Below are positions 3,114 to 42,237 of a stretch of DNA of 64,000 nt, in pieces. The first letter of the stretch is position 1; the number at the start of each line of letters is the position of its first letter. Source of the DNA: Myxococcales bacterium (GTDB lineage Bacteria; Myxococcota; Myxococcia; Myxococcales; UBA5297); contig JBNKEI010000169.1 of assembly GCA_050288705.1 (NCBI GenBank), forward strand, positions 1,108-65,107. Reading direction: 5' to 3'. The translations under genes were made by a program, and so were the position numbers. The notes beneath the pieces are model-generated. The model saw nothing but the letters and a program-made list of their open reading frames with translations. It did not search any database and was not told the origin of the DNA.

Positions 3114-3683
3114 TCATTTTTCTTTTGCAGACAAAGGAATGGCTCTGTCTACGATAAGATTGCCAAAACGCACAGGGGGAATTGATTCGCCGGTTGATTC
3201 CTGGGCAATTTTTTTCACTGAAATATCGGGAAAGACAGCTGGAAAATCAGCCCAGGTTTTAAACGAGCTGTCACGACTAGAAGAAGTTAGAGTAAATCGC
3301 ACTGGTTTATCAGTTTGTTTATCGGAGTACGCTACTCGAAAAAACCGAATATAGGTATATGGATATGGACTAGGTGCAAATGTTTCTTCAAGATTTCCCT
3401 CCTTTAACCCTGAATTAGAAGGCAATTCTACACGAAGGACAGGCGCTGCCGGAACTTTTGCCTTTATGGATATTTTAACGCGAAACCAACATGATTCATT
3501 CTCTATTCCTGAGTCCTCTATAGTTACTTCCATTGGATTCCAGGATAGCGTACGAGAAGAAAGTTGGTTATTTTTCAGGGCTTCGGCAAAAACGTTTGTG
3601 GTACTTTTCTCTTCGTTTGCAAAAGCAAGCAATGGGACAGAAAGAAATGCTGTATAGATTATTACTTTTGACGTTCTAAACAT
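3114..3683 (-). CDS. Secreted hypothetical protein, likely partner of the upstream metalloprotease
   Basis: ORF track 3114..3737. More likely start is ATG 3683 (MFRTSKVIIYTAFLSVPLLAFA, signal peptide) with a GGAG RBS. Confidence 0.6.
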   Translation of the reverse strand: MFRTSKVIIYTAFLSVPLLAFANEEKSTTNVFAEALKNNQLSSRTLSWNPMEVTIEDSGIENESCWFRVKISIKAKVPAAPVLRVELPSNSGLKEGNLEETFAPSPYPYTYIRFFRVAYSDKQTDKPVRFTLTSSSRDSSFKTWADFPAVFPDISVKKIAQESTGESIPPVRFGNLIVDRAIPLSAKEK

Positions 3684-3727
3684 TTTGACTCCTTCCAAGA
3701 AACGACGTTTAGGCAAATTATCTACCA

Positions 3728-5056
3728 TTAGTGGCAAATTGAATTTCCAGAATCGTAGGGAAATCCAAAATATTGTAATGTATTATCGACATTAGTGCTT
3801 TCCTGTGGCGAAGCACAAACTAATGCATCAACAAAATCGACAAGGTCAGCACCTAAGGCACCGCGATCTTGTCTTTTAAATCTCGACGAGGAAATAGCGG
3901 AAAAAACCGCTTCGGTCCCCAATGCAGCTCCATCGTCTTCCCCTACTTCTGCCACATCCTTGCCATCCCAGAGATTATATAGTGCTGAGGCTACGAAACT
4001 CTCATCGATATCCTGTTCAATTCCGCCATCTAATGTAGGTAGAGCAATAGCCGATTCAGGGCTAATTTCATTATAATTGAGCCAAAAAAAACTATTTTGT
4101 TGAATATTCCAAAAATAAGGAAATGGCTGCTTGCTCCATCTTCCCATGGCACTAGTTGCAAAAAAACTAGCCCATCCTTCACTAAAGGCGAATGCAGGCT
4201 CTATCTTTTCTCCCAACAAATGTTTTCCTCCTAAACTATCATCGCGTGAATAGTTCTGCATTACATAATGACCAAGCTCATGAAGAAGGACTGGTGCTCC
4301 CCAGGCAGAAGAGCCAGATCGACTACCTCCCAGAAAAACAAATTGCTGAAACTGTACAGATGAGTTATTAACCAATAGTGTAATATTTTGGTTAGGCGGT
4401 ACATAACACGAAACACATTCCACATCCTCCTTCCAATCCTTGCCAGGCGCCCATATATATGCTATTGGTTTTAAATTTTCTAAGCGATCTTCAAGCATAT
4501 ACTTTACTACGTCTTGTAAAGCACGTGTAGCCATAGAAAATATAAAGACAGCACCTGAACCATCATCCTCTTTAATTATTGCTCGTCCTACTTTGCCTGA
4601 GCTAGGCACAGGCACAGACCACACCCATAAGTCGGCAAATACGTTAATATCTTCTTGTTTTTCTTGAAAAGAAACCGTACCTGCATTCAATACTGTAAAA
4701 ACAACCTCGTTTGTCGAGGACAATAAAGCTGGCACAAAAAGAACTTTATCGCCTTTTTTGACAGGCCTCGTAATATTAAAATCAAAAGCACCGTTTTCGT
4801 CTAACGATGATGAAGCTAAGACATTGCCATTTTTGTCTACTAATAAGGATAATAACCCCCCGGCCTTTTCCCGAAATAATTCGGTCCCTAGGACAATCTC
4901 ATCATTTTCTTTGGCTAGCCGTCGATATTGAAACTCCACTTTTCCAAATACTCTGCCATTATAGTCTTCACTAGATCTTTTATGATCATTGTCTCCTCCG
5001 CAACTAGTTGCCATCACAACCAATAACAAAAAAAGAGATGTTTTTAAGTACATCAT
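3728..5056 (-). CDS. Lipoprotein with zinc metallopeptidase (HExxH) motif
   Basis: Lipobox MATSC; LLHELGHYV followed by AFSEGWASFF (candidate third zinc ligand Glu). Confidence 0.7.
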   Translation of the reverse strand: MMYLKTSLFLLLVVMATSCGGDNDHKRSSEDYNGRVFGKVEFQYRRLAKENDEIVLGTELFREKAGGLLSLLVDKNGNVLASSSLDENGAFDFNITRPVKKGDKVLFVPALLSSTNEVVFTVLNAGTVSFQEKQEDINVFADLWVWSVPVPSSGKVGRAIIKEDDGSGAVFIFSMATRALQDVVKYMLEDRLENLKPIAYIWAPGKDWKEDVECVSCYVPPNQNITLLVNNSSVQFQQFVFLGGSRSGSSAWGAPVLLHELGHYVMQNYSRDDSLGGKHLLGEKIEPAFAFSEGWASFFATSAMGRWSKQPFPYFWNIQQNSFFWLNYNEISPESAIALPTLDGGIEQDIDESFVASALYNLWDGKDVAEVGEDDGAALGTEAVFSAISSSRFKRQDRGALGADLVDFVDALVCASPQESTNVDNTLQYFGFPYDSGNSICH

Positions 5057-5295
5057 AAATGAGCGCTTTCTTTTTCAATTAAGTTGTTTAGTCGATCCGA
5101 ATTATTCCCCTTGAGACGCTTATCATCCGCTTCCTTGTAGACAGATGGAGCACAATCGGTGCCAACCCGTAATTTTGACGGCGACTTTTCGATAAGCCTG
5201 CATGAAACGACGCTACTGCCCGCGAGCGTACTTTGTCTGGCGGGAAGCGGTTGCAATTTCATCAAGCCGACAACGGTTATCGTATGGGTTTGACT

Positions 5296-5327
5296 AGTCC
5301 AGTTTCTAAACCATTGGTCCGCAAATT
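5296..5327 (+). promoter_or_regulatory. Putative activator-binding (UAS) box, divergent copy
   Basis: AGTCCAGTTTCTAAACCATTGGTCCGCAAATT resembles the reverse complement of the boxes at 7345 and 8393. Same orientation and about 78 bp spacing relative to a sigma-54 promoter. Confidence 0.55.
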
Positions 5328-5404
5328 TTACTAATAGGCCACTACAGAGTCACTTTTTCGAGCAAACCCGCATTCAGCGATGGACAAACGACTCAATAAC
5401 TAGC

Positions 5405-5420
5405 TGGCACCGGGCATGCA
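5405..5420 (+). promoter_or_regulatory. Sigma-54 -24/-12 promoter
   Basis: TGGCACCGGGCATGCA (GG-N10-GC) upstream of 5538. Confidence 0.7.
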
Positions 5421-5537: not shown

Positions 5538-5804
5538 ATGACCGGGTCACTCAAACGCCCCATTAATATCAATGGATTTGGCGAAAACGATCAAATTAGT
5601 GTTACATCAAAAAAACATGGGAGCGTTCGAATTGTTGTTACCGGTGAGTTTGGAAAAAAGAAGATTTACAACTTGACTGCCCAAGAAGCTGAGCGAGCTG
5701 TTATCAATGGAGGCAGAGGAAATAACGTCATCTGCATCGGAAGTGGTATAAATTGGGACCAGAAAATAAATGTTACATTCGGATACAACATGTTGACGAT
5801 TTAA
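5538..5804 (+). CDS. Small hypothetical protein with a degenerate RTX-like GGxGN motif
   Basis: AAGGAG RBS, own sigma-54 promoter and downstream terminator; INGGRGNNVI motif. Confidence 0.65.
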   Translation: MTGSLKRPININGFGENDQISVTSKKHGSVRIVVTGEFGKKKIYNLTAQEAERAVINGGRGNNVICIGSGINWDQKINVTFGYNMLTI

Positions 5805-5825
5805 AACTAATGGAGCATTTAATTA

Positions 5826-5859
5826 GCCGCATCCAGGATGCGGCCCTATTTCTTTCTTT
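5826..5859 (+). terminator. Intrinsic terminator
   Basis: GCCGCATCC-A-GGATGCGGC stem followed by a T-rich tract. Confidence 0.65.
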
Positions 5860-6098
5860 ATAAAGCGATCTACAACTATTGTGCTACGACTTAAGATTCC
5901 CATTGAGAAAGCGGACCAACGGGATTTTGGGCCATGAATAGTCTATTCTAAATCATTGGTTTACAATTTTTAACAATTTGTTTGATAAGCGAGTTAGTTT
6001 TTCGTATCAGCCAATTCCTGGCAAACGAATAGAGCATTAATAAAATGAACGGATAAGGAATGAGATCTCTGAAACAAAATCTTAATACCAAATCTTGG

Positions 6099-6130
6099 AA
6101 AAAATTCTTGGGCTGAAATATTCAGCCCAA
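6099..6130 (-). terminator. Intrinsic terminator for the MIIA-domain gene
   Basis: TTGGGCTGAA-ATA-TTCAGCCCAA perfect stem, with a T tract on the minus strand. Confidence 0.6.
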
Positions 6131-6188
6131 ATTTCTCGAGAATTTAAGCTACTATTTCTCGGTGATTCTTAAGGAGACGTCAACAGCA

Positions 6189-7202
6189 TCATCTAGGAAT
6201 CGAGTGTAACTTTTTATCAAGTTCACCGAATTTAAGCATGAGGTGATAGAGACTTTCGGTCCAGCGAATGCTATCCTCCTGTCGATAATGTGTTTTGTCA
6301 TCTATTGGCTTTAGATCTTGTCCCACTACTAGCTTGGAACCGCGGTCCTTGCTTCCAACTATTTCTTTGCCACCAAGAATCCAATCATCGCCGTCTCCAG
6401 CCATTTGGAATACGTCGTTGCCGCCAAAGCCGCGGTTTTCTGCGCGATACTCTCTGCCGTCATGTTTTATATCGCTCGATTTTCCTGGGCCTTTGTCAAT
6501 ATCAGAAATAGTCGCGTGATCATTGCCACAAGTTATGTCGAGCTGCTTGGTTGTGGTCCAGCCATTTTTGTTGGCAGCCGTTGTTCTCACATCGATTCGC
6601 GTACCATCCGGCAATTTGAATACTGAATCTCTCTTGAAATCCCATGTACCTCCATCGCCCTCGGCCACATGGGGATCACCAGAGACGTTCGTGGTTTTCC
6701 CCTCGGGTGATACAATTGTCCAACCTTGATTGTTTTTTTTCGAAGGAATGATTTTGTATCCACCAGGAGTAGTGTACGAGCCATTGTCATTTTTGGTTAA
6801 TTTTGGTCTATGACTGTGATGATGATGATGATGATGCCCTCCTTCTATATCATCCACAGCACCTTCAACCTCAAAAGCATCTAGTGCGTCTTTCTGATCT
6901 AGATGGAAAAAATCTGGACCCTTTTCCGAATTTTCCACCAGATTAAAATAGGCTGGATTGTCAAGAAAAAACTTGCATGCATTTTTTAAAGCCAATGGCG
7001 CCCCAGGGTTATTGTAAGCAATATCGTGCAAATCGTTTTTGTCAATTTGTGCGCAGCTGCCTTTTGCTCCTGCAATCAATTTGAAATTGTTTTTTAATAT
7101 ACGAATAGCCTTTTTATAATCCATTTTTCCCCAAGGCAAAGATCCAGAATAAGGGAAAGCCCCAGAAGGGGAATGTCCTGGAGGCATAGGTAAAATTGAC
7201 AT
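6189..7202 (-). CDS. DUF1521 / MIIA (metal-inducible autocleavage, GDPH) domain protein; putative T3SS substrate
   Basis: Start ATG 7202 with TAGGAG RBS. Ser/Pro-rich N-terminus, His-run linker, then NVSGDPHVAEGDGGTWDFKRDSVFKLPDGTRIDVRT...QLDIT, matching the DUF1521 pattern. N-terminal domain is paralogous to 7647..8255. Confidence 0.75.
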   Translation of the reverse strand: MSILPMPPGHSPSGAFPYSGSLPWGKMDYKKAIRILKNNFKLIAGAKGSCAQIDKNDLHDIAYNNPGAPLALKNACKFFLDNPAYFNLVENSEKGPDFFHLDQKDALDAFEVEGAVDDIEGGHHHHHHHSHRPKLTKNDNGSYTTPGGYKIIPSKKNNQGWTIVSPEGKTTNVSGDPHVAEGDGGTWDFKRDSVFKLPDGTRIDVRTTAANKNGWTTTKQLDITCGNDHATISDIDKGPGKSSDIKHDGREYRAENRGFGGNDVFQMAGDGDDWILGGKEIVGSKDRGSKLVVGQDLKPIDDKTHYRQEDSIRWTESLYHLMLKFGELDKKLHSIPR

Positions 7203-7249
7203 GATATTTCTCCTAATTTGGTTATGGGTTAATTCTCGACAAGACATAT

Positions 7250-7265
7250 TGCCAACATCATGCCA
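7250..7265 (-). promoter_or_regulatory. Sigma-54 -24/-12 promoter
   Basis: Minus strand TGGCATGATGTTGGCA (GG-N10-GC). Confidence 0.65.
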
Positions 7266-7344
7266 ACATGCGCTTAGCCTATTTGTTGCCTACCGGAAAT
7301 GCGGATAGTGGTTATTTAAAACCAAAGAAGAAACAAGTATTAGG

Positions 7345-7381
7345 GTTAATTTGCTGGACCAACAGTTCAGATTTCGAACTC
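7345..7381. promoter_or_regulatory. Conserved 37-bp putative activator-binding box
   Basis: GTTAATTTGCTGGACCAACAGTTCAGATTTCGAACTC, 36/37 identical to 8393..8429; contains the dyad AGTTC-N7-GAACT. Confidence 0.65.
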
Positions 7382-7646
7382 CAGCATATCTCAAGAACGC
7401 TGGTAATAAAATTGTCGATTGGGCCACAATGCTCTGGGCAAGTACAGCAAAACTCTTTAAGGTTTTGGAAATTCTCGACAAAACGGGTGGTGTCGGGAAC
7501 ATTGTGAGCAGCGCGCTCTCCCTCATCCGGTCGCGCAACTTTGTAAATAGGAAATGAAGTGACCCCATTATTTCGGGGCCACCGAAAGACAATTTTTATT
7601 CTCCTCTAAAAGCGTGTACTGCTCAACACATAACTCGCCATGTTGG

Positions 7647-8255
7647 TCAGAATCCAAATATTTTACCAACGTTTTTAAGACCGTCGGCTAATTTATTGCC
7701 GATATCCATAGCAGCATTCGTGGCGTTCTTAACCCCATCGGCTAATTTATTGCCGACATTCATAGCAGCATTCGTGGCGTTCTTAACTCCATCGGCTAAT
7801 TTATTGCCGACATTCGTGGCGGTCTTCGTGGCGGTCTTCGTGGCGGTCTTCGCAAGGGCGTACACAGAATCTAGTTTACAGTGACCATGATATCCTCCCC
7901 ACATATCTTTCATGGCACTATTAATCTCAAAAACATCTAATGCATTTTTTTTGTCAAGCCCAAAAGGCATGTTCGCGGAATTTTCTACCAGATTAAAATA
8001 GGCTGGATTATCAAGAAAAAACTTGCATGCTCTTTTTAGATCCGATGGCGCTCCAGGGTTATTGTAAGCAATATCGCGCAAATCATTTTTGCCAATTTGT
8101 CTGCAGCCGCCTTTGGCTCCAGCAATCAATTTGAAATTATTTTTTAGAACACTAAGAGCTTGTTGATAATCCATTTTTTCCCAAGGTAAAGGCTGAGGAA
8201 AACCAAAATTCTGAGGTATAGAAGGGAAATGGCGCCCCATAGGTAGTTGTGACAT
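7647..8255 (-). CDS. Putative T3SS-secreted protein; paralog of the 6189 gene N-terminus with C-terminal amphipathic repeats
   Basis: Shares MDY..A..LKNNFKLIAGAKG...DL.DIAYNNPGAP..LK.ACKFFLDNPAYFNLVENS with the 6189 gene. Tail of ATKT repeats and about three NVGNKLADGVKNATNAAM-type repeats. Confidence 0.7.
   Translation of the reverse strand: MSQLPMGRHFPSIPQNFGFPQPLPWEKMDYQQALSVLKNNFKLIAGAKGGCRQIGKNDLRDIAYNNPGAPSDLKRACKFFLDNPAYFNLVENSANMPFGLDKKNALDVFEINSAMKDMWGGYHGHCKLDSVYALAKTATKTATKTATNVGNKLADGVKNATNAAMNVGNKLADGVKNATNAAMDIGNKLADGLKNVGKIFGF
7684..7851. repeat. Intragenic tandem repeats (54-bp unit about x3; 12-bp unit x3)
   Basis: Repeated TCGGCTAATTTATTGCCGA...ATAGCAGCATTCGTGGCGTTCTTAAC units and TTCGTGGCGGTC x3. 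Confidence 0.85.
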
Positions 8256-8302
8256 GATATTTCTCCTATTTTGGTTATGAGTTAATTCTCAACAAGGCAT
8301 TT

Positions 8303-8318
8303 TGCTAATACCATGCCA
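8303..8318 (-). promoter_or_regulatory. Sigma-54 -24/-12 promoter
   Basis: Minus strand TGGCATGGTATTAGCA (GG-N10-GC). Confidence 0.7.
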
Positions 8319-8392
8319 ACGCGTATTCGCCCATTTGCTGCCTATTATAAATGCCGAATAGCCCATTTAGCATCAAAAAAGAACAGGAAAGA

Positions 8393-8429
8393 GTTAATTT
8401 GCTGGACCAACAGTTCAGAATTCGAACTC
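8393..8429. promoter_or_regulatory. Conserved 37-bp putative activator-binding box between divergent sigma-54 promoters
   Basis: GTTAATTTGCTGGACCAACAGTTCAGAATTCGAACTC lies about 75-78 bp from each of the two divergent promoters. Confidence 0.65.
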
Positions 8430-8506
8430 AGGCATTTGGCTGGGCCTAGTAATCAACGTTGTTTCACGAGAGAGATGCCGGCGCGATTCTTACACTTCAA
8501 TAATAT

Positions 8507-8522
8507 TGGCATCATTCTAGCA
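8507..8522 (+). promoter_or_regulatory. Sigma-54 -24/-12 promoter
   Basis: TGGCATCATTCTAGCA (GG-N10-GC) upstream of 8595. Confidence 0.7.
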
Positions 8523-8594
8523 TTGATAATTTAGCGAAGTACAAAACAAATAACGAAGACCTTTGGTCTTCTATACCACTAATAGGAGTACACT

Positions 8595-8873
8595 ATGATT
8601 GGCGCAATCGTTGGCGGAATAGCAAGTCAAGCAATTGGTAAAATAGCCAGTAATGCTATCGGCAATATTATGGGCGGTGGCGGCCAAGAAGGGGCTTCGG
8701 GCATGTCTAAAGCTGAACTGGAGGAGCAACACAAAAAGAGCATGGAAGAACAATATGCTATGATGGCTCTCCAAGACAAAATGGCCCATGATAACACTAT
8801 GGCACAAATGATATCTAACATACAGAAGTCAGAAATCGATACCCTAAAAGGCATTGCAGCCAACATGAAGTAA
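8595..8873 (+). CDS. T3SS needle/pilin-like small helical protein
   Basis: 92 aa with TAGGAG RBS. C-terminus LQDKMAHDNTMAQMISNIQKSEIDTLKGIAANMK fits the Q..M......SN..K...D....I..N.K/R pattern of SctF-like filament subunits. Confidence 0.6.
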   Translation: MIGAIVGGIASQAIGKIASNAIGNIMGGGGQEGASGMSKAELEEQHKKSMEEQYAMMALQDKMAHDNTMAQMISNIQKSEIDTLKGIAANMK

Positions 8874-8898
8874 TTATCCTAACCTTTGTACAATCATA

Positions 8899-8930
8899 AC
8901 GCGTGAACTAATATCTTGTGGTTCACGCGT
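8899..8930 (+). terminator. Stem-loop after the needle-like gene (partial terminator or mRNA stabiliser)
   Basis: ACGCGTGAAC-N12-GTTCACGCGT perfect 10-bp stem; the T tract is not immediately adjacent. Confidence 0.5.
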
Positions 8931-8984
8931 ATATCCCCAAGATTTTTTATTTTATTCATTGTTATTTTGAAATAGGAGAAAATT

Positions 8985-9542
8985 ATGCCTAGTCAACATG
9001 CAACATATCAAGAACCACCAGAAATTACCGAGCAACGAAAGCAAGTACTGCATGAACTCCAAAAGGCGGCCAAATCTCATTCAGGAATATTGCAAGAAGT
9101 ATTGCTAAAAATATATCAAGTAGTACAGAATACAACCCCTGACTCGAACCGCGATGCTCGATTAACTAAAGACACTCAACTGGCTATTCAGCAATATTTG
9201 AATGCTCGTAAATCAGGCAAGGTTTCTTCCGAGATCCCCCAGGCCATCCCTTTAGCCGTTGAATTTATACAAAACAATATAAAAGTGCTAGGAGAAGCAA
9301 CTCGTTTAGAAACAGAAGGGAAGCCCCTGGAAGTCAAAGAGTTCAAAGGAATAAAAACCTTTCTGCCGTCCTTGCGCACCATACACTTTGATAATGATGC
9401 ACTTGAATTGACACCACAGGGGTACCATCGCCAGGTTTTCTTAGGAGAATATTATGCCACCAATACAATCACTCAGAGCCCTCGTATCCGTACAAAAACT
9501 CCTGGATGGGTAAATCCAGCGCTAGGCCACATTATTGTTTAG
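8985..9542 (+). CDS. Hypothetical protein
   Basis: 185-aa ORF with TAGGAG RBS; no motif recognised. Confidence 0.65.
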   Translation: MPSQHATYQEPPEITEQRKQVLHELQKAAKSHSGILQEVLLKIYQVVQNTTPDSNRDARLTKDTQLAIQQYLNARKSGKVSSEIPQAIPLAVEFIQNNIKVLGEATRLETEGKPLEVKEFKGIKTFLPSLRTIHFDNDALELTPQGYHRQVFLGEYYATNTITQSPRIRTKTPGWVNPALGHIIV

Positions 9543-10001: not shown

Positions 10002-12335
10002 ATGAAATCACCTGAGGCATCAGGGGGTATTTTGGCAGTGGCACTGCTAGGTATTGCGGCATGTTCGGATAATTTTCCCGGAAAATGCAATAGTAACGCC
10101 GGTTGCCAAGGGGAAAGTAAATGCCATGAGGGTTTGTGTGTGCTCATTCCTGGACAGACCAATGGACAGACCGATGAAATAACTAATTTGATTGCCGAGC
10201 CTGGTCCTCAGCGGACACTATTGCATTGGGACGCAGTTCCAGGAGCTTTGAGTTACAACGTCTATTGGAAGAATTCTAGTGGAGTTAGTAAAAGCGATAA
10301 GTACGAAATCAGTGAAACCAACGAGCTGGTACACAGCGAGCTTGAAAATTGGCAATCCTATTATTATGCGGTAGCAGCAGTGTTACCCACCGGGGAGACA
10401 TCGCTTTCCCAGGAGGCCTGGGCGCGACCTGCTCCTCTAATCCCTGATAAGACTGTAAACGCGATTGCCCAAGGAAGCGACGGTACCGTTTATATCGGTG
10501 GACAGTTCTCTAGAATTGGACTTGCTAGCGGAAGCATATTGGCATGGAATACTATTCGTAGTCAGCCCATTCCCTTTCCGCTGGTAACAGGTTTTGTTTC
10601 TGCGATCGCTCCTGATGGAACTGGAGGGTGGTATATTGGTGGAGAATTTTACCGGGTGGATGGCGTAAAGAAAAGCGGCTTAGCTCATATTCTTGCTGAC
10701 GGCACCCTAGACCAGAATTGGAAGTCTGGTGATAATTTTTTGGGCCATGTTAATGCATTAACAGTTAACGGAGAAACCATTTACGTAGGGGGCGAGTTCT
10801 CGCGCATCGGCGGTAAGGAAAGGAATAACCTTGCGGCTATCCATTCTGACGGCACCCTAGATCTAGATTGGAAGCCTGATGCCGATGGTAAGGTAAGCGC
10901 ACTAGCAGTAAGCGGAGAAACTATTTACGTAGGCGGCGAATTCTCGCACATCGGCGGAGAGGAAAGGAAGAGCCTTGCGGCTATACATTCCGATGGCAAC
11001 CTGGACCAGAAATGGAAACACGATGTTGAGGGTCTGGTCAATACATTGGCAGTAAGCAAAAGCGGAGAAATCATTTACATAGGGGGGAATTTTTCCAAAA
11101 TTGGCATTGATGAAAGGAAAAACCTTGCGGCTATCCATTCCGACGGCACCCTAGACCAGAATTGGAAGCCCTATTCTAATTCTGGGTCTAGTGTAGCTAC
11201 GTTGGCAGTAAGCGGAGAAATCATTTACGCAGGTGGTTATTTTTCCAAAATCAATGGAGAGCTAAGGAAAAACCTCGTGGCCATTCATTCCGATGGCCGC
11301 CTAGACCAGAATTGGAAGCCCGAAGCTAATAGTGGTGTAGTAGAGTTGATAGTAAGCGGAGAAACCGTTTACGTGGGGGGGGCTTTTTTCAAAATCAATG
11401 ATACACCACGGAGAAACTTGGCGGCAATAAAAGTCGACGGTACTCTGGACCAGAATTGGAGTCCCGAACCCAATGGTGTTGTGTCTGCGTTGGCAGTAAG
11501 TGGAGAGAATATCGTTGCAGGGGGCAAATTTGCCAGTATCGGCGGAGAATCAAGAAAGTACCTTGCCGCAATAAATGCCGACGGTTCCCTCGGCCAAGAC
11601 TGGAAGCCCGAGCCTAATGGTGTCGTGTCTGCGTTGGCAGTAAATGGCCAAACCGTTTACGTAGGTGGTGCTTTTTCCAGTATTGGGGAGGCTTCAAGAA
11701 AAAAATTTGCAGTAATAAAAGCCGATGACGGTACCCTAGACCCGAATTCTAATTGGGATCTCAGGCCCGATAATTCTATACTTGCCTTGGCAGTAGAGGG
11801 AAAAAGAATTTATGTGGGCGGTGAGTTTTCCACTATCGGCGGAGTGGCAAAAAAGTACCTTGCCTCAATAAATGCCAACGATGGCACCCTGGACTCGAAT
11901 TGGAATCCTAATCCCGAAGGAGTTGTCTCGGCATTGGCAATAAGCGGCGAAACCATTTATGTGGGTGGCGAATTTGAAAATATTAGCGGAGGGTCACACA
12001 AGCATCTCGCAGCAATAAAAGCCTCCGACGGCAGCCTGGACACGAATTGGAATCCTAACCCTAATGAAGCTGTCTCGGCATTGGCAGTAAATGGAGAAAC
12101 CGTATACGTAGCAGGCAATTTTACCAGCATTGGCGAAGGACAAGAGAAATATCTTGCGGCCATTCTTGCCAACGGTATCGGTACTCTTAACAAGAATTGG
12201 AATCGTCCGCCTGCTACCTACTCTGCCGTATCTGCATTGGCAACAAGTGGAAAAACCCTTTTCATAGGTGGCAGTTTTACCAGCATCGACTACCATTTCC
12301 CCCAAACCAACTTCACCAACTTGAGCTTACCCTGA
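10002..12335 (+). CDS. Lipoprotein: Cys-rich module, FN3 domain and delta-60/DUF5122-like beta-propeller repeats (copy 1)
   Basis: Lipobox IAAC; C-x5-C-x5-C-x4-C module; LHWDAVPGALSYNVYW...YYYAVAAV (FN3); about 11-12 repeats of V.ALAVSGETIYVGG.F..IGG..R.NLAAI..DG.LD.NW.P. Confidence 0.85.
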   Translation: MKSPEASGGILAVALLGIAACSDNFPGKCNSNAGCQGESKCHEGLCVLIPGQTNGQTDEITNLIAEPGPQRTLLHWDAVPGALSYNVYWKNSSGVSKSDKYEISETNELVHSELENWQSYYYAVAAVLPTGETSLSQEAWARPAPLIPDKTVNAIAQGSDGTVYIGGQFSRIGLASGSILAWNTIRSQPIPFPLVTGFVSAIAPDGTGGWYIGGEFYRVDGVKKSGLAHILADGTLDQNWKSGDNFLGHVNALTVNGETIYVGGEFSRIGGKERNNLAAIHSDGTLDLDWKPDADGKVSALAVSGETIYVGGEFSHIGGEERKSLAAIHSDGNLDQKWKHDVEGLVNTLAVSKSGEIIYIGGNFSKIGIDERKNLAAIHSDGTLDQNWKPYSNSGSSVATLAVSGEIIYAGGYFSKINGELRKNLVAIHSDGRLDQNWKPEANSGVVELIVSGETVYVGGAFFKINDTPRRNLAAIKVDGTLDQNWSPEPNGVVSALAVSGENIVAGGKFASIGGESRKYLAAINADGSLGQDWKPEPNGVVSALAVNGQTVYVGGAFSSIGEASRKKFAVIKADDGTLDPNSNWDLRPDNSILALAVEGKRIYVGGEFSTIGGVAKKYLASINANDGTLDSNWNPNPEGVVSALAISGETIYVGGEFENISGGSHKHLAAIKASDGSLDTNWNPNPNEAVSALAVNGETVYVAGNFTSIGEGQEKYLAAILANGIGTLNKNWNRPPATYSAVSALATSGKTLFIGGSFTSIDYHFPQTNFTNLSLP

Positions 12336-12350
12336 AAAAGATTTCTATAA

Positions 12351-12434
12351 GGTTTTTCATTATTTCTTGGAATCGGGTAGCCCTTTCAAGAAAAAAGTAT
12401 TGGCAAGCAAGGTTTTATTAAGCGTGGGAATTTG
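12351..12434 (+). pseudogene. Vestigial 3' end of a PEGA-domain gene
   Basis: Translates FFIISWNR... then, after a frameshift, ASKVLLSVG; compare FFYVSWDR...TSQVLFTVGGNF at the end of 14883..16331. Confidence 0.6.
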
Positions 12435-12467
12435 GAACGTGAGCTATAAAGAAAGGCTTAATTCACC

Positions 12468-14804
12468 ATGAAATCACCTGCGGCATCAGGGGGTATTTTG
12501 GCAGTGGCGCTGCTAAATATTGCGGCATGTTCGGTTAATTTTCCCGGAAGATGCAGTAGTAACGCCGATTGCCAAGGAGAAAGCGAATGCCGTGAGGGTT
12601 TGTGTGTGCACATTTCTGGACAAGCCAATGGGCAGACCAATGAAATAGCTAATTTGATTGCCGAGCCGGGTCCTCAGCGAACACTGTTGCGTTGGGACGC
12701 AGTTCCCGGAGCTTCGAGTTACAAAGTCTATTGGAAGAATTCCAGCGGAGTAAGTAAAAGCGATAAGCACGAAATCAGCGAAACCAACGAGCTGGTACAC
12801 AGCAAACTTGAAAATTGGCAACCCTATTATTATGCGGTAGCAGCAGTGTTACCCACCGGGGAGACCTCGCTTTCCCAGGAGGCTTGGGCGCGACCTGCGC
12901 CTCTCATACCTGATAGCCCTGTAAACGCAATAGCCCAAGGAAGCGACGGTACTGTTTATATAGGTGGAGCTTTTTCCCGAATTGGCCCTGTATGCGGAGG
13001 GGTAGTAGCCTGGGATACCGCCCGTAACCGCCAAAGCCCCTTTCCACTGGTAACAGGCTCTGTTTATGCGATCGCTCCCGATGGAACTGGAGGGTGGTAT
13101 ATTGGGGGAACGTTTCGCCAGGTGGATGGCATAAATAAAACTGGGTTAGCTCATATTCTTGCCAACGGCACCCTAGATCCAGTTTGGAACGTTAATGGTT
13201 TTTCGGGCCATATCGAAACATTGGCAGTAAGCGGAGAAACCATTTACGTCGGTGGCAACTTCTCGCTCGTCGGTGAAGAGCAAAGGAATAACCTTGCGGC
13301 TATCCATTCCGACGGCACCCTAGATCTCGATTGGAAGTCTTATGCCGATGGTCCAGTCCTTTCATTAGCAGTAAGCGAAAGTGGAAAAATCATTTACGTA
13401 GGGGGTTCTTTTTCTAAAATTGGCACTGATGATAGGAAAAACCTTGCGGCTATCCATTCCGACGGTATTCTAGACCAGAATTGGAAGCCCGATGCTGATG
13501 GTCAGGTCAATGCATTGGCATTGAGCGAAAGTGGAGAATTCATTTACGTAGGGGGGAGGTTTTCCAAAATTGGAACTGATGATAGGAAAAGCCTAGCGGC
13601 TATCCATTCCAGCGGCAGCCTAGATCAAGTTTGGAAACCCAAAGTTAAATCTGAGTCTAATGTAGTTACGTTGGCAGTGAGCGGAGAAATAATTTATGTA
13701 GGTGGTTATTTTTCCGAAATTGATGAGGAGAGAAGGTGGAACCTCGCGGCCATTCATTCCGATGGCAAACTAGATCGGAATTGGAAGCCCAAAGCTAATA
13801 ATGGTGTAATGAAGCTGGAAGTAAGCGGAGAAAATGTTTATGTGGGGGGTTCTTTTTCCTCAATCAATGAAAAACCACGGGGGGGCTTTGCGGTAATAAA
13901 AGCCAACGGTACTTTGGACCAGAATTGGAGGCCCGAGCCTGATGGACATATACACGCGTTGGCAGTAAGTGGAGAGAATATCGTTGCAGGAGGCGAATTT
14001 ACCAGTATCGGAGGGGAGCCGCGAAAGCACCTTGCCGCAATAAATGCCGACGGTACCCTGGACCAAGACTGGAAGCCCGAGCCCGATGACAATATATATG
14101 CGTTGGCAGTAAATGACCAAACCGTTTACCTAGGCGGCGCTTTTTCCAATATTGGTGAGGTTTCAAGAAAGAGATTTGCAGTAATAAAAGCCGATGACGG
14201 TACCCTAGACCCTAATTCGAATTGGTATCCCGAGCCCGATGACTCTGTACTTGCCTTGGCAGTAAAGGGAAAAAGTATTTATATGGGCGGTAAGTTTTCC
14301 ACTATAGGAGGAGCGGCAAAAAAGTACCTTGCCGCAATAAATGCCGACGATGGCACCCTAGACCCGAATTGGAATCCTAATCCCGAAGGAGTTGTCTCAG
14401 CATTGGCAATAAGCGGAGAAACTCTTTATGTGGGTGGCGAATTTGAGAATATTGGCGGAGGGTCAAACAAGCATCTCGCGGCAGTAAAAGCCGCCGACGG
14501 CAGCCTGGACCCGAACTGGAATCCTAGCCCTAATGAAGCTGTCTTGGCATTGGCAGTAAACGGAGAAACCGTATACGTAGGCGGCAATTTTACCAGCATC
14601 GGCGGAGAATCACAGAGATATATTGCGGCCATTCTTGCCAACGGTACCGGCACTGTGAACAAAAAATGGAATCGTCCGACTGCTATCTACTCTGCCGTAT
14701 CTGCATTGGCAGCAAGTAAAAAAACCCTTTTCATAGGTGGCAGTTTTACCAGCATCGACTACCATTTTCCCCAAGCCAGGTTTACCAACTTGAGCTTACC
14801 CTGA
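12468..14804 (+). CDS. Lipoprotein: Cys-rich module, FN3 domain and beta-propeller repeats (copy 2, tandem paralog)
   Basis: Colinear with 10002..12335, with near-identical termini and upstream sequence (GGAATTTGGAAC.TGAGCTATAAAGAAAGGCTTA.TTCACCATG). Confidence 0.85.
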   Translation: MKSPAASGGILAVALLNIAACSVNFPGRCSSNADCQGESECREGLCVHISGQANGQTNEIANLIAEPGPQRTLLRWDAVPGASSYKVYWKNSSGVSKSDKHEISETNELVHSKLENWQPYYYAVAAVLPTGETSLSQEAWARPAPLIPDSPVNAIAQGSDGTVYIGGAFSRIGPVCGGVVAWDTARNRQSPFPLVTGSVYAIAPDGTGGWYIGGTFRQVDGINKTGLAHILANGTLDPVWNVNGFSGHIETLAVSGETIYVGGNFSLVGEEQRNNLAAIHSDGTLDLDWKSYADGPVLSLAVSESGKIIYVGGSFSKIGTDDRKNLAAIHSDGILDQNWKPDADGQVNALALSESGEFIYVGGRFSKIGTDDRKSLAAIHSSGSLDQVWKPKVKSESNVVTLAVSGEIIYVGGYFSEIDEERRWNLAAIHSDGKLDRNWKPKANNGVMKLEVSGENVYVGGSFSSINEKPRGGFAVIKANGTLDQNWRPEPDGHIHALAVSGENIVAGGEFTSIGGEPRKHLAAINADGTLDQDWKPEPDDNIYALAVNDQTVYLGGAFSNIGEVSRKRFAVIKADDGTLDPNSNWYPEPDDSVLALAVKGKSIYMGGKFSTIGGAAKKYLAAINADDGTLDPNWNPNPEGVVSALAISGETLYVGGEFENIGGGSNKHLAAVKAADGSLDPNWNPSPNEAVLALAVNGETVYVGGNFTSIGGESQRYIAAILANGTGTVNKKWNRPTAIYSAVSALAASKKTLFIGGSFTSIDYHFPQARFTNLSLP

Positions 14805-16370: not shown

Positions 16371-17156
16371 ATGAAATCACGTGCGACGTCGTGGGGAGGT
16401 TTGGCAGCGGTGTTACTAAGTACTGCTACCTGTATTGATTTCCCCGGAAAATGCAATGATGACAAAGATTGTAAAAATGGAGTGTGCCGTCAAGAATTGT
16501 GTTATACAAGGCAGCCCAATGAAGATAATAATGGAAGCGAATGCGTACCCGAGACAGTGGACGAGCACTGTGAAAGCGTGGGAAAAGCTTGCGGCATAAA
16601 TTCCTGGACCGACAATTGCGGGCAAACACGAAATGAGATCTGTGGAGAATGTCCTAATTGCACAAAGTTTGACGAGGAGCGAAATCGGCCTGCGCTTACC
16701 AATTGGACCAATTGGCCGGCTATTCCCATTCCTCCGCCAAATGATGCTTATTCAGTCATCAATGACCAAGGAGATGTGCTCGATTCTCAGACCTGCCTCA
16801 TTTGGCAACGCTATGTACAGACAAATACTATAGCTCAGCCGCATACGGGTGGTCCGCAGTTTTTTACCTGGTACGAGGCAAAAGATCATTGTAAGGGAAA
16901 CTGGCGGTTGCCCTCCAAAGTTGAACTTGAATCGATTATTGACAACAGTCGAATTAATTTGGCGATTAACGACGTCTTTGGTCAGCCAGAAAATGGTTGT
17001 CCATCACGCGGCTGTTGGTTCTGGACTGCAACAGATTACGAGCACATCCCGGGCAGTGGTTATACTGACCCGGCGGCATGGTATGTCGACTTCTCTAGCG
17101 GTTACAGCAATGGAGACAACAAGGACTATACCGGCTTCGTCCGCTGTGTGCGCTAA
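16371..17156 (+). CDS. Lipoprotein with Cys-rich module and DUF1566 (Lcl C-terminal, C-type lectin fold) domain
   Basis: VLDSQTCLIWQR, FTWYEAKDHC, WRLPSKVELESI, WFWTAT, AWYVDF..G, FVRCVR. Leader homologous to the 10002 and 12468 genes. Confidence 0.85.
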   Translation: MKSRATSWGGLAAVLLSTATCIDFPGKCNDDKDCKNGVCRQELCYTRQPNEDNNGSECVPETVDEHCESVGKACGINSWTDNCGQTRNEICGECPNCTKFDEERNRPALTNWTNWPAIPIPPPNDAYSVINDQGDVLDSQTCLIWQRYVQTNTIAQPHTGGPQFFTWYEAKDHCKGNWRLPSKVELESIIDNSRINLAINDVFGQPENGCPSRGCWFWTATDYEHIPGSGYTDPAAWYVDFSSGYSNGDNKDYTGFVRCVR

Positions 17157-17176
17157 CCCCCTAAGTAAAAAGCATT

Positions 17177-17749
17177 TTGGGAGCAAAAATGAAAAGCATT
17201 ATTTATTCACATGGTCCCTGTATTAGAAATTATGCTCACTTATTCAGCGTCGTCGGAGTAATCGCCATTTTTAGCGCGCCAGCGACCTATGCAAGCGCAC
17301 CCGTAGGCCGGTTCATAGTGACAGAACATGACGATCCCAATGACAACACAGTCTACGATAGCGTAACCAAATTGACTTGGCAGCAGAAAGTTCTCAACAG
17401 CGGCCGTAAATGGGCAGAAGCAGTTGATTACTGTGATGAGCAAAACACAAAAAAGCTTGGAGGATTTGATTCTAGGTGGCGACTACCAACTATTTCCGAA
17501 CTAAGGACTATTGTAGACACGGCCAATATCAAGGGATCAACCATAGATAACAAGCGACCAGCTATTGATCCAACCGCTTTTCCAAATGCTAGAGATTGCT
17601 GGTTCTGGAGTTCCACCCCTTATATGGACGGTAACTTCAAGCCGGATGGTACTGGGGGCTTTGCATGGCGTGTCCTCTTCTCCGACGGCTCCAGTCTTTT
17701 TGGCAAAGTTGACGACATCTACACTGCCGTCCGTTGCGTGCGCGACTAG
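17177..17749 (+). CDS. Secreted DUF1566 (Lcl C-terminal) domain protein
   Basis: TVYDSVTKLTWQQ, WAEAVDYC, WRLPTISELRTI, FWSST, AWRVLF..G, AVRCVR. Start may be ATG 17189. Confidence 0.85.
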   Translation: MGAKMKSIIYSHGPCIRNYAHLFSVVGVIAIFSAPATYASAPVGRFIVTEHDDPNDNTVYDSVTKLTWQQKVLNSGRKWAEAVDYCDEQNTKKLGGFDSRWRLPTISELRTIVDTANIKGSTIDNKRPAIDPTAFPNARDCWFWSSTPYMDGNFKPDGTGGFAWRVLFSDGSSLFGKVDDIYTAVRCVRD

Positions 17750-38997: not shown

Positions 38998-41900
38998 ATG
39001 CCCCACCGCGCAGGGTATTTTGTTTTAGCATATAATTGGGATCATCACTGTAGCGATTTGGCGGAAACTATTAAAACGCGTTTCGGCCATCTTTACTGCG
39101 AGCTGGAATCGCTAGCGCTTCCTCAACGCAATTCGCGCGCACACCTGATTGCATATTTGAGCAATTGGCAATCTTTACAAGAACGTTTTCAACAACACAT
39201 TCATGAGCTAGATCGCCGTTGCCAAACCATTCATGAACTTGGGCAACGCGGTTACGGGACTAATCGCGACCTTCTTCAGGCCTTGCAAATTTTGGCCAAA
39301 GAACAAAGAGCAGTAACCGAACCCATATTCCACCAGAAATTCGAGCATTGTATTCCCCGACTTCCCAAAAAAGGTTCTATTCCCAAAGAAGTAGTGGTAG
39401 CGCGCGACGTGAAAACGCTTGTGACCATTCTAGGCAGTCCCACCTTTAACAATACTTCCGAGCACGATATTATCTCCAACGGCTTCGGCCAGTATTTTCA
39501 GGCGATGTCAAAAACGCCATGGGTGGTCAACACTTCAATTTTTCAAAAGCTTTTTTTGAAAATTGGCGCTGCTTCCATGACTCTAATGCAAGGAAAAGTG
39601 GGACTTTCTTCGCCACGACCGGCGCGCGAGTTAAAAATAACCGCTAACCGTAATTTTATGGAAATGTATCGAGAATCGTTCGCCAGTTTGCACTTGTTTT
39701 CAGAAATTGGACTCGATTTTTTAAAACATATTCACTGGGTACTTTCGAAAGGCATCTACGCTGATGCTGGCCATTTTCGCACGATTGACTTTCCCGATCG
39801 CAATGGAGTCACCACTGAATTTAATAATCTTTCCCGTGAAATCGGCAATCTAACCCATGTTCTAAGAGAAACTGCTCGCAGCTTCCATGATCTACCCAAA
39901 TTCATATGGGACCTTGCTCGGTCGTACTACATGTTTATTGGTATTCATCCTTTTTCGGACTCCAATGGTCGCGTGGGCCGAATATTTCTTAACCACATGC
40001 TTTTGAAAAAAGGAATCCCTCCCATTGGATTCCACGACAAAGACGAAATTTTTGCCTTACCTCGATATGGTGGAACCATGGAGGATATGCACCAATATTT
40101 ACTTCGTCGAATTTCCCTTGCAACCGAAGATTATTTTCGTGAACGAACCCTCATGGAATCTGCTGGCCGGTTCGACAAAGATGTATATAATATTTCATTT
40201 GATTCCGGATGCCATTTTCAGCAAATCGATGATAACCCTCAGCATATTGAAGTGCATCTTCCCGTATATATCGCCCCCGAAGAATCACCCGAAGCTAAAC
40301 TGCTAATCAACCATGGCAAAATTGTGCTTTCCAATGAAGAATTACTGCCAGATTTTTCTTTATATTGCGGATTGACCGACACTGAGAGAGGGGACTGGAA
40401 ACATACATTAGGATTGATTAGACCGCGCTCATCACACGAGATTTCTTCCGATGTTCCCGCCACAAAATCATTCGAGCTCCGTTACGCCATTGACTTTGAC
40501 AAAGAATTTTCCGAACACGAGTATCTTTGCTGCTCCGCGGTTTCTCCTAGTAACCAGCAAGTGTTCAGTAATCAAGGAGCTTATTATTCATTACGCTTAG
40601 AAAAGCGTCATTTTACCGGCATCCATCATTCTTTGGCGGCTGAGCGTTATGCTTTTCCTTCATATAAATGGCTCAACGCCCGCCGCATGCTTCCCGTAAC
40701 TCCTCATGGGCTAGCAGTTTGTAATCCGGGAGGAATTGGTTTCTCATTTATGGGCGGCGCTGAGGGAATGTCTCTCAAAGTTCTGCTGCAATTATGGCGG
40801 GCAGACGGAGCCAGTGAGCATTATCTTTGCGATGCCTACCGCGTGCACGATTTTGGTGGCGATTGGCAACAGTGGCAAACCCACCGCCTTCCATTGCTAC
40901 CATGGGACGGACCACACGGACATGTTACCTACGCTGTTTTTTCTTATTTAATCCACCGCAGCAATCAAGCCCTAGTTTCTCAAAACTGCTATAAGTTTGC
41001 GACCTTTGCAGAGTTTTCCAGCAATTCAACTGATCGTACTGATTTTTTTGATCCCTGCTATAAAACAGAAAACCCTTACACCCTTAATCAAGTTGACGCC
41101 CAAGAGTTGCAAGCGGCCTACGATCGGGTCTGTAATTCCCAGACTTTGGACATGGAGGTCAGATTTACCCGTGGAAACCCGGGAAGCCCCGAGCACCCGG
41201 TGAACGAAATTCACCGCGAAATCGACCGGGTAATTGCCAAAAAGAAAGACGATCCCCAAGGTCGTCATTGGATTCATTTAGCTTTGTTTGACTTAGACAA
41301 TTATCACATTGCAGAGCACTTGATTTATGCAAAAAATCAAGGAGTTGAAGTTGAGTGTTTAGGCGACTGGGCGGGAATGAGTGCGCTCAATCGCACTGAT
41401 AATATTGCCCGAATTCGTAAAGCCGGTATCCCAGTTTTGGGAATAGTTCGCAACACCCCAGGAGTGCCCTCTGAGGGCATTGGAAGCATGCATACGAAAA
41501 TTTTTATTTTCGATGGGGAAGTAGTGCATAGCAGTTCTTATAATTTGCATTTCCATCTTTGGGGTGGAAACCGTGAAGAGGTTATGATTTTTCGCTCGCC
41601 AGAAATAGCTCTTCTTCATGAAAATATATTTCAAGCTATACGAGGAGGAATCATTCAGCCATTACAAATTGATCCTCTTGCATCATTTAATTTGTACTAT
41701 AGTTTTGGCTATACCATTACTAAAGAAGGAAAATTGTTCCGCGCGCAAGACGCCATACTTACCGAAATCCATAATGCCCAAAAATCGATAGAAGTTTGCA
41801 TGTTCGACATTGGATTTCTAGTGGGCACATCTTTAGGAGATTCTTTTGAATCCGATGTAGTATCAGCCCTCATTCATGCCCGAAATCGAGGCATAAGAGT

Positions 41901-42237
41901 AAAAGTAATATTGAATGGACAAATTGCCCACACTGGTCAGCTCCCGGCGAGTTGGGATAAAAAATTCAGACGCCCACTCAAACCAGCCGCCAAACGATTG
42001 AAGGACGCCTGGGTTGACGTCTCGTTTTTGTATTACCACGAAAGCGTTTATTCCCCTCTGCATCACAAAATAGCAGTAATTGATGGACACACTTCGGTCA
42101 TTGGATCGTATAACTGGTATGAAGCCAGCCTAGTTTCTGACGAAGTAGTTTCAGTAATAAGGAACCGACAATTAGCCAAAACACTTTCCGATGAAATTCA
42201 TCTTATTGAAAAGTCCTATCGCTTGGAGAAAGAGTAG
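38998..42237 (+). CDS. Fic domain-phospholipase D (two HKD motifs) fusion protein
   Basis: Fic motif IHPFSDSNGRVGR (39946); HKD motifs MHTKIFIFDG...SSYN (41491) and LHHKIAVIDG...GSYNW (42061); 1079-aa continuous ORF with RBS. Confidence 0.85.
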   Translation: MPHRAGYFVLAYNWDHHCSDLAETIKTRFGHLYCELESLALPQRNSRAHLIAYLSNWQSLQERFQQHIHELDRRCQTIHELGQRGYGTNRDLLQALQILAKEQRAVTEPIFHQKFEHCIPRLPKKGSIPKEVVVARDVKTLVTILGSPTFNNTSEHDIISNGFGQYFQAMSKTPWVVNTSIFQKLFLKIGAASMTLMQGKVGLSSPRPARELKITANRNFMEMYRESFASLHLFSEIGLDFLKHIHWVLSKGIYADAGHFRTIDFPDRNGVTTEFNNLSREIGNLTHVLRETARSFHDLPKFIWDLARSYYMFIGIHPFSDSNGRVGRIFLNHMLLKKGIPPIGFHDKDEIFALPRYGGTMEDMHQYLLRRISLATEDYFRERTLMESAGRFDKDVYNISFDSGCHFQQIDDNPQHIEVHLPVYIAPEESPEAKLLINHGKIVLSNEELLPDFSLYCGLTDTERGDWKHTLGLIRPRSSHEISSDVPATKSFELRYAIDFDKEFSEHEYLCCSAVSPSNQQVFSNQGAYYSLRLEKRHFTGIHHSLAAERYAFPSYKWLNARRMLPVTPHGLAVCNPGGIGFSFMGGAEGMSLKVLLQLWRADGASEHYLCDAYRVHDFGGDWQQWQTHRLPLLPWDGPHGHVTYAVFSYLIHRSNQALVSQNCYKFATFAEFSSNSTDRTDFFDPCYKTENPYTLNQVDAQELQAAYDRVCNSQTLDMEVRFTRGNPGSPEHPVNEIHREIDRVIAKKKDDPQGRHWIHLALFDLDNYHIAEHLIYAKNQGVEVECLGDWAGMSALNRTDNIARIRKAGIPVLGIVRNTPGVPSEGIGSMHTKIFIFDGEVVHSSSYNLHFHLWGGNREEVMIFRSPEIALLHENIFQAIRGGIIQPLQIDPLASFNLYYSFGYTITKEGKLFRAQDAILTEIHNAQKSIEVCMFDIGFLVGTSLGDSFESDVVSALIHARNRGIRVKVILNGQIAHTGQLPASWDKKFRRPLKPAAKRLKDAWVDVSFLYYHESVYSPLHHKIAVIDGHTSVIGSYNWYEASLVSDEVVSVIRNRQLAKTLSDEIHLIEKSYRLEKE

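Follow-up and report, generated by a model that had tools for sequence, protein, structure and literature searches.

Type III secretion systems (T3SS) of the 'Myxo' type, also referred to as T3SS*, are described in the available text of PMC3459982, PMC10433427, PMC12075869 and PMC12428579 as lacking a secretin, a needle, a translocon and known effectors, and the way in which T3SS* moves its substrates is treated there, in reviews up to 2025, as an open question. Here we describe a stretch of 64,000 nucleotides from a Myxococcales bacterium (assembly GCA_050288705.1, contig JBNKEI010000169.1), the whole of which is referred to below as the window. An island of five small open reading frames (ORFs), g1 to g5, occupies positions 5538-9542 of the window. 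Gene context in related genomes and T3SS genes found elsewhere in the same genome support the original prediction, made from the letters of the sequence, of a detached T3SS substrate module, and we consider it likely that the island provides substrates for the genome's secretin-less non-flagellar T3SS, which resembles the 'Myxo' type, as a module detached from the apparatus and under regulation of its own.

The apparatus encoded in this genome shares with the 'Myxo' T3SS, as far as the available text of PMC3459982 and PMC12075869 describes it, the set SctD, J, I, Q, R, S, T, U, V and N together with LcrH-like chaperones, and no secretin has been found for it either; unlike T3SS*, its genes lie at a minimum of five loci in a low-GC, flagellated genome. 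The closest described counterparts of g2 are the MIIA proteins NopE1 and NopE2 of Bradyrhizobium and VIC_001052 of Vibrio coralliilyticus. According to the available text of PMC6506597, the MIIA proteins studied to date are secreted, the catalytic Asp of their GDPH motif has a role in self-cleavage, the domain is disordered in VIC_001052, and the gene family is linked to T3SS clusters, as it is here. The g2 protein is similar to them in combining a DUF1521 domain with GDPH and in lacking a Sec signal. It differs from all three in the fusion of a single MIIA domain to a NolX/HrpK1-type repeat and a run of seven histidines, and likewise in being detached from the apparatus, under a sigma-54 promoter and in the company of a host system without a secretin.

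The family to which g4 belongs resembles the SctF needles (MxiH, PrgI, EsaG/SsaG and YscF; PF09392, TIGR02105) in its small size and in a predicted C-terminal helix motif that aligns to the far C-terminal end of MxiH and EsaG; in relatives its genes adjoin TPR chaperone genes inside T3SS clusters, as SctF genes do, and its short subtype has a proline turn. Unlike SctF, g4 carries a glycine-zipper N-terminus in place of helix 1 and the P-x-x-P turn, and the family occurs in multiple paralogs or tandem arrays in systems without an outer-membrane secretin. The HrpF/NolX/HrpK1 translocators (PF16937, PF05819) are comparable to g2 and g3 in that each of the latter carries one copy of an approximately 90-amino-acid (aa) repeat; unlike the translocators, g2 and g3 stay below the family cut-off and have no hydrophobic C-terminal region. 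In Pseudomonas syringae, sigma-54 and an upstream activator site, with HrpR and HrpS, control genes for T3SS-exported proteins; compared with that arrangement, the island promoters sit directly on the putative substrate genes and not on a gene for an intermediate sigma factor.

Gene context in relatives and the T3SS of the genome

Gene context provides the decisive support for reading the island as a detached module. In relative G023 and in named Cystobacter, Archangium and Pyxidicoccus records, g5-like, SctF-like and DUF1521 genes stand in a row between sctRSTU and sctV; the order in G023 is SctL, SctN, SctR, S, T, U, an FlhB-C-like protein, a 159-aa protein, TPR, g5-like, SctF-like, DUF1521, TPR. 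Because the same kinds of genes follow one another at this position in relatives, the island appears to be a detached, re-regulated copy of that module. G023 belongs to the same order, and the proteins of its locus match Cystobacter and Archangium at E values of 1e-64 to 1e-93, which indirectly bears out the Myxococcota-like character that had been assigned to the genome. In public records the SctF-like, g5-like and DUF1521 proteins of these clusters are labelled 'hypothetical protein'.

A scan with the DUF1521 alignment yielded 34 loci in Myxococcota and Acidobacteriota, including named Archangium, Cystobacter, Hyalangium, Corallococcus and Pyxidicoccus records and Pyrinomonadaceae. A Sct apparatus gene lies within 10 kb at 23 of the 34 loci, a TPR chaperone-like gene is found at 32, an SctF-like gene at 16 (with up to six in tandem in Archangium) and a g5-like gene at seven, all of them in Myxococcota. 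Some of these clusters have further peculiarities. At L055:6412-9145 (Archangium lansingense), and also at L061 and L063, five or six almost identical genes for 72-aa SctF-like proteins are arrayed in tandem between the g5-like and DUF1521 genes. Directly 3' of full-length sctU, myxobacterial clusters carry a free-standing gene of about 95 aa that corresponds to the FlhB/SctU C-terminal autocleavage domain alone (L042:8907-9197 in G023); this gene is also seen at L047, L048, L053, L055 and L067.

The SctF-like family was detected in 16 of 31 related genomes, including all 13 in which SctV exceeds its cut-off; in the other three family-positive relatives a family gene lies 6-8 kb from an SctV-like gene. 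Among the 15 family-negative relatives, ten lack FHIPEP altogether, and the other five carry a single copy below the cut-off. Within 10 kb of an FHIPEP match lie 26 of the 56 family matches. Six seemingly detached matches in relatives were considered as islands of the same kind and rejected, since they adjoin a TPR chaperone gene (five of six) and SctJ (four of six). A sample of 101 genomes across the phylum gave a similar picture: both the family and FHIPEP were present in 86 genomes, the family alone in two, FHIPEP alone in two and neither in 11, so that 86 of the 88 FHIPEP-positive genomes carry the SctF-like family.

The genome of the island encodes a non-flagellar T3SS outside the window, as had been proposed. 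The NCBIfam cut-offs are passed by SctV (821 vs 692), SctU (360.5 vs 358), SctR (228 vs 208.6) and SctN (620 vs 604.75), SctJ and SctQ fall just under theirs, and SctD and SctO exceed Pfam cut-offs; an SctI-like ORF and a TPR chaperone resembling LcrH are sub-threshold, the latter for LcrH_SycD. The set is spread over five or more other contigs, each group being flanked by housekeeping genes: SctV on C29; a FliO-like gene with SctR/S/T/U on C198; SctN on C52; SctD, SctJ, the SctI-like ORF, a FliA-type sigma factor and the LcrH-like chaperone on C38; and SctQ, SctO and a FliK-like protein on C136. Since housekeeping genes flank each group on its own contig, the scatter is real and no artefact of the assembly. 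No dedicated SctC secretin was found in this genome, which is rated 100% complete but lies in 212 contigs: TIGR02516 detects two secretins, both below the cut-off, and these sit in a pilMNOPQ operon (type IV pilus) and a gspCDEFG operon (type II secretion). A complete flagellar cluster is encoded separately on C152 (L018:8679-19540 and L019:1540-7349), and five flagellin matches were obtained (L013-L017). The genome has a guanine-plus-cytosine (GC) content of 46% and is flagellated, though it shares its GTDB order with Cystobacter/Archangium-like genomes; FlhA-grade matches are also present in the same-family genomes G002, G003 and G011.

Proteins of the island

The g4 gene (8595-8873, plus strand) encodes 92 aa: the N-terminus is a glycine zipper, a Gly-rich linker comes next, and aa 52-92 (8748-8870) make up an SctF-like C-terminal helix. 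Its C-terminus matches that of a 175-aa ORF in the T3SS cluster on C38 (BLASTP E 1e-5). A word search for close homologs returned g4 itself alone. A profile of g4 and three paralogs retrieved 50 cluster representatives at E <= 0.001 among 1.84 billion proteins; the top four were g4 and proteins with lengths matching the three paralogs, and 37 of the remaining 46 entered the family alignment, nine of at least 214 aa being dropped. The 37 foreign members share a strongly conserved extreme C-terminal helix behind a variable, often Gly/Ala-rich N-terminal part. A hidden Markov model (HMM) built from these foreign members alone finds six ORFs among 55,703, namely the C38 ORF (5.9e-16), g4 (1e-11), a pair of 73-aa twins carrying a P-D-P turn (about 1e-7) and a further two short ORFs, and the next match is at E 1.1. 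On sequence grounds, then, g4 belongs to a large unannotated family with a predicted SctF-like C-terminal helix.

Among 177,635 PDB sequences, the best match of the family profile is 7y6c_F, at E 0.0055 with an alignment of 41 sequences (A3) and 8.6e-5 with one of 18 short members (A5); MxiH aligns in the same register and to its exact C-terminus at E 0.24. PDB 7Y6C is EscE-EsaG(33-73)-EsaH, a needle protein with its chaperones (available text of PMC9426511), and from its length of 43 aa and its printed sequence chain F is taken to be the needle fragment EsaG(33-73); the table of PDB matches labels 7y6c_F under the name of a co-chaperone family. The four-paralog profile (A2) gave nothing meaningful against the PDB. 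T3SS_needle_F is the Pfam family matched by the largest number of members (6/41, best E 5.6e-5), and no member of the family exceeds a curated needle cut-off. In the short subtype (72-75 aa) a proline turn separates two predicted helices, and this subtype aligns with g4 in hhalign at a probability of 95.5% and E 1.5e-8; just two of its 18 members match an NCBIfam model, that of HrpA pilin, and weakly. For a canonical Pfam SctF, the genome offers no better match than the SctI-like ORF, which at E 0.0027 stays below the cut-off.

The 185-aa g5 (8985-9542, plus strand), with a helical N-domain and a C-terminal W-x-N-P-x-x-G motif, is a putative partner protein of SctF-like genes. A paralog with 53% identity follows another small family member on C45, and a third copy lies in a canonical module on the same contig, made up of a 163-aa protein, TPR, the g5-like gene and two 73-aa SctF-like genes. 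Distant homologs occur in 4 of 30 relatives, always adjoining a TPR chaperone gene and small SctF-like genes. Against the PDB, the g5 family profile matches designed helical bundles alone (E >= 0.039), and a search of Protein Atlas with a g5-like homolog gave no usable match.

The g2 gene (minus strand) encodes a NolX/HrpK1-type repeat (6867-7127; HMM match E 3.1e-9), the run of seven histidines and the MIIA (DUF1521) domain. Its longest ORF spans 6189-7247 (352 aa). The start is most likely Met16 at 7202, giving 6189-7202 and 337 aa, since an AGGAG ribosome site precedes this codon, the ATG at 7247 is only 3 nt away from the end of the -12 element, and the public gene call likewise has 337 aa. 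The protein passes Pfam DUF1521 (PF07481) at E 7.9e-10 and 39.4 bits against a cut-off of 23.6; the core matched by Pfam lies at 6504-6758, and the family alignment extends further C-terminally. The GDPH motif (S-G-D-P-H-V, 6669-6680) is the predicted site of Ca2+-triggered self-cleavage after Asp, a role taken from the available text of PMC6506597, and G190, D191, P192 and H193 fall in near-invariant columns of an 11-sequence alignment with myxobacterial and acidobacterial homologs. As to the N-domain of g2, none of the 119 other homologs listed covers more than 60% of the query, so that sharing of this domain is not apparent in any of those listed.

The adjacent g3 (7647-8255, minus strand, 202 aa) carries a NolX/HrpK1-type repeat at 7908-8177 and, at 7670-7838, three 18-aa amphipathic repeats, encoded by 3.1 copies of a 54-bp unit; its N-domain is 66% identical to that of g2 over about 140 aa. 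An HMM made from seven repeats of two other proteins of the genome matches g3 (3.9e-11), g2 (3.1e-9) and nothing else among the 55,703 ORFs. The two source proteins are a 535-aa protein on C183 that passes Pfam T3SS_HrpK1 (34.8 vs 30.9) and a 441-aa protein on C179 with four NolX/HrpK1-type repeats that lies just under the T3SS_HrpK1 and NolX cut-offs. The NolX-type domain has no match among PDB sequences. A YopJ-family Ser/Thr acetyltransferase (Pfam E 2.6e-51) adjoins the four-repeat protein (L027:3293-4900 on the minus strand and L027:943-2268 on the plus strand); the YopJ family comprises classic injected effectors, found here in a genome whose T3SS has no secretin.

The remaining gene, g1 (5538-5804, plus strand), encodes an 88-aa orphan protein without a family, presumably co-regulated with the others. 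It matches no Pfam family at E <= 0.1, its only homolog among 5.8 billion clustered proteins is itself, and its alignment with DUF1521 (hhalign probability 0.35%) indicates no relation. A description of g1 as RTX-like was considered and rejected, as there is no Pfam match, no homolog and at most one nonapeptide-like stretch by eye.

The protein-level claims of the original prediction fared unevenly against these results. A GDPH/DUF1521 protein and its N-domain paralog with amphipathic repeats are indeed encoded by g2 and g3, and the five small genes are as described. The RTX-like label of g1 finds no support. For the 92-aa protein, called needle- or pilin-like, the C-terminal helix of the family does align with needle subunits, if remotely; g4 itself passes no curated model, and the helical hairpin anticipated for it is not modelled with confidence.

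Layout and regulation of the island

An ORF scan of the window delimits the five genes. A terminator-like hairpin follows g1 at 5826-5844 (plus strand) and another follows g2 at 6107-6131 (minus strand), both from a hairpin scan; between g4 and g5 an inverted repeat was noticed by eye at 8900-8929 (plus strand), which the terminator scan did not call. N-terminal hydropathy reveals no hydrophobic core in g1, g2, g3 or g5, and the N-terminus of g4 is a moderately hydrophobic glycine zipper without a charged n-region; all five proteins lack a Sec-type N-terminus, in agreement with the prediction that signal peptides are absent. No apparatus gene, as also predicted, and no sigma-54 activator is present among the 43 other window ORFs scanned, and the flanking ORFs at 3114-3737, 3728-5056 and 10002-12335 likewise encode neither. 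Rfam finds no family over the window.

Sigma-54-type -24/-12 elements stand 47-118 nt before the start codons of g1 to g4. They lie at 5405-5420 (plus strand, TGGCAC-N5-ATGCA) for g1 and, as pattern matches, at 7250-7265 (minus strand) for g2, 8303-8318 (minus strand) for g3 and 8507-8522 (plus strand) for g4; the g5 gene follows g4, and no promoter of its own was found. GG-N10-GC elements near the consensus TGGCAC-N5-TTGCW and placed upstream of a gene were accepted, which applied to four sites. The four sigma-54 promoters that had been reported for the island are thereby recovered. The pattern TGGCAY-N5-WDGCA has five matches in the window against 0.57 expected, and none of 100 shuffles reaches five, although this pattern was derived from the island sites themselves and the enrichment test is partly circular. 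A stricter sigma-54 consensus with one mismatch is not enriched (eight found vs 4.24 expected), and sigma-70-type promoters in the island are at chance level (11 vs 11.9 expected). The genome contains rpoN (Sigma54_DBD match E 2.7e-63 on C9).

A conserved element of 35-40 bp, which had escaped the original prediction, is located about 90-110 bp upstream of every island promoter. The copy of g1, an enhancer-like element (upstream activator site) at 5293-5329 on the minus strand, lies about 95 bp upstream of its promoter and is conserved with the two other copies; that of g2 (7346-7385) lies about 110 bp upstream, and a common one at 8394-8433 is about 90-95 bp from each of the divergent g3 and g4 promoters. 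A position about 100 bp upstream (about 80-150 bp) is the usual geometry of the enhancer of a sigma-54 activator. The motif has five matches genome-wide, all three island copies and one each on C5 and C17, and it is absent from the other sigma-54-type sites of the genome.

With a loose pattern, 42 sigma-54-type matches were counted genome-wide, about 27 being expected from composition. The g4 paralog on C7 has the same promoter type as g4. The g4 leader contains a perfect hairpin with a 7-bp stem (8555-8571), and a similar leader precedes the C7 paralog (L030, upstream of 685). Sigma-54-type matches also precede genes for an Amidase_2 peptidoglycan amidase of 504 aa (L032:341-1855, minus strand), a CHAP-like protein of 286 aa (L033:1265-2125, minus strand), a TGL transglutaminase-like protein of 414 aa (L035:1103-2347, minus strand) and a 161-aa unknown (L034:767-1252, plus strand), none of which has an obvious signal peptide by eye. 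As reviews tie T3SS* to local peptidoglycan degradation of prey, these four proteins are possible lytic cargo. No sigma-28-type motifs were seen upstream of the apparatus-linked SctF-like genes.

Other genes of the window include, directly downstream of the island (10002-14804 and 16371-17749), two DUF5122 beta-propeller paralogs, each about 777 aa long, and after them two proteins with Lcl_C domains; on C52, Lcl_C proteins flank the orphan sctN as well. An ORF at 38998-42237 encodes a 1079-aa protein with a Fic domain and two PLD-like domains.

Alternative explanations and a proposed mechanism

Several observations weigh against the interpretation of the island as a T3SS substrate module. The similarity of its proteins to known T3SS components is often remote: 35 of the 41 SctF-like family members, g4 among them, have no needle match, g4 in particular matching neither T3SS_needle_F nor III_needle at E <= 0.1, reaching only 18.9 bits with the HrpA pilin model (cut-off 34) and lacking the P-x-x-P turn. 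The AlphaFold2 model of g4 has a confident helix at 39-91, a low-confidence N-terminal helix at 10-22, disorder at 23-38 and a predicted template-modelling score (pTM) of 0.40, with no hairpin; Foldseek finds no match for this model in the PDB, and VIA-align returns generic coiled coils (Z <= 6.2) with no needle protein among 50 rows. These fold searches are uninformative, because a single long helix cannot discriminate between folds. The SctI-like ORF shows no similarity to the SctF-like family (hhalign probability 0.24%). Likewise, g2 falls below the T3SS_HrpK1 (PF16937) cut-off (E 0.011, 15.9 bits vs 30.9), g3 has no PF16937 match at E <= 0.1, and the hydrophobic C-terminal part of true translocators is absent from both, the maximal 19-residue hydropathy being 0.42 in g2 and 0.53 in g3; given the sub-cut-off scores and the missing hydrophobic part, g2 and g3 are best regarded as sharing a module with the HrpK1 family without being members of it.

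Distribution and regulation add further points on the same side. The NolX-type repeat occurs in just 4 of the 101 phylum genomes and DUF1521 in just 3 of the 31 relatives, 11 of the 34 DUF1521 loci have no T3SS gene within 10 kb (several of them being short contigs), and the compared genomes are related, so that the co-occurrence counts overstate independence. The island contains no chaperone gene. The apparatus-linked SctF-like genes have neither a sigma-54 promoter nor the enhancer element upstream, and for this reason co-regulation of the island with the machine gains no support.

Three other explanations were weighed against export through the non-flagellar T3SS. We regard it as unlikely that the proteins are linked to the T3SS without being exported, acting as cytoplasmic regulators or assembly factors, for example as SctF-derived decoys that titrate TPR chaperones, or, in the case of g5, as a gatekeeper-like regulator. 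It is unusual to find a structural needle gene in so many copies (six SctF-like paralogs here, and in Archangium tandem runs of up to six), and this number would fit such a role, as would a machine without a secretin, the single helix of the g4 model and the description of T3SS* as unable to build a needle (available text of PMC3459982 and PMC10433427). Yet in EsaG and MxiH it is through the needle-type C-terminal helix that the subunits polymerise and bind chaperones, exported substrates are typically encoded beside LcrH-type chaperones, and the MIIA proteins studied so far are secreted, according to the available text of PMC6506597. A slightly smaller chance, and in our view a slim one, is given to a sigma-54 stress or surface regulon of small lipid-binding, LEA-/phasin-like and Ca2+-binding proteins that has nothing to do with the T3SS and whose T3SS likenesses arose by chance. 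That the C-terminus of g3 matches phasin and Senescence domains (both sub-threshold), that g1 is an orphan, that the HrpK1 matches of g2/g3 and the HrpA match of g4 are sub-threshold and that the window holds no T3SS gene would all agree with it; chance is nevertheless hard to reconcile with the recovery of g4 at E 1e-11 by an HMM built without it, with a family that tracks FHIPEP in 86 of 88 positive genomes, and with g5-like, SctF-like and DUF1521 genes that are contiguous inside T3SS clusters.

Export through the flagellar apparatus appears very improbable. The genome does possess a complete flagellar cluster and five flagellin matches, and sigma-54 promoters are common in flagellar genes; in relatives, nevertheless, the family and its partners are found in the non-flagellar clusters (with SctD, SctJ and SctQ) and not beside flagellar genes, and the five FHIPEP-positive relatives without an SctV-grade copy are also without the family.

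If the island is a substrate module of the non-flagellar T3SS, as we favour, the following mechanism can be proposed. A sigma-54 activator would bind the enhancer element and switch the island on, and the proteins, which have no Sec signals, would leave the cell via the T3SS export gate. The needle-type C-terminal helix of g4 would join or cap a short polymer of 73-aa SctF-like subunits, while its glycine-zipper N-terminus may contact a membrane; g5 would be its dedicated partner, either a chaperone or a co-assembling cap. The g2 protein would remain unfolded in the cytoplasm, and micromolar Ca2+ outside would induce its folding and self-cleavage after the Asp of GDPH, so that the NolX-type N-module is freed from the C-fragment, as in NopE1 and VIC_001052. 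Through g3 the same N-module would be delivered in fusion with amphipathic repeats that look lipid-binding, and g1 would be co-regulated cargo. A further-reaching proposal, clearly tentative, is that the 'needleless' Myxo-type T3SS does have a needle: the SctF-like family, in its short and glycine-zipper forms, would, together with g5-like partners and LcrH chaperones, form a polymer in the periplasm or at the surface, with DUF1521/MIIA proteins as its conserved cargo, and the island would be a sigma-54-switched variant set in which g4 serves as a membrane-active tip or cap variant.

The analysis puts forward three candidates inside T3SS* clusters, namely the SctF-like family, the g5-like partner family and the MIIA proteins with predicted Ca2+-triggered self-cleavage, and with its four promoters the island offers a clean sigma-54/enhancer unit in which to look for the signal that turns these genes on. 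Should export be confirmed, both the mechanism proposed for prey lysis and the view of early T3SS evolution that has the Myxo lineage losing SctF would have to be revised.

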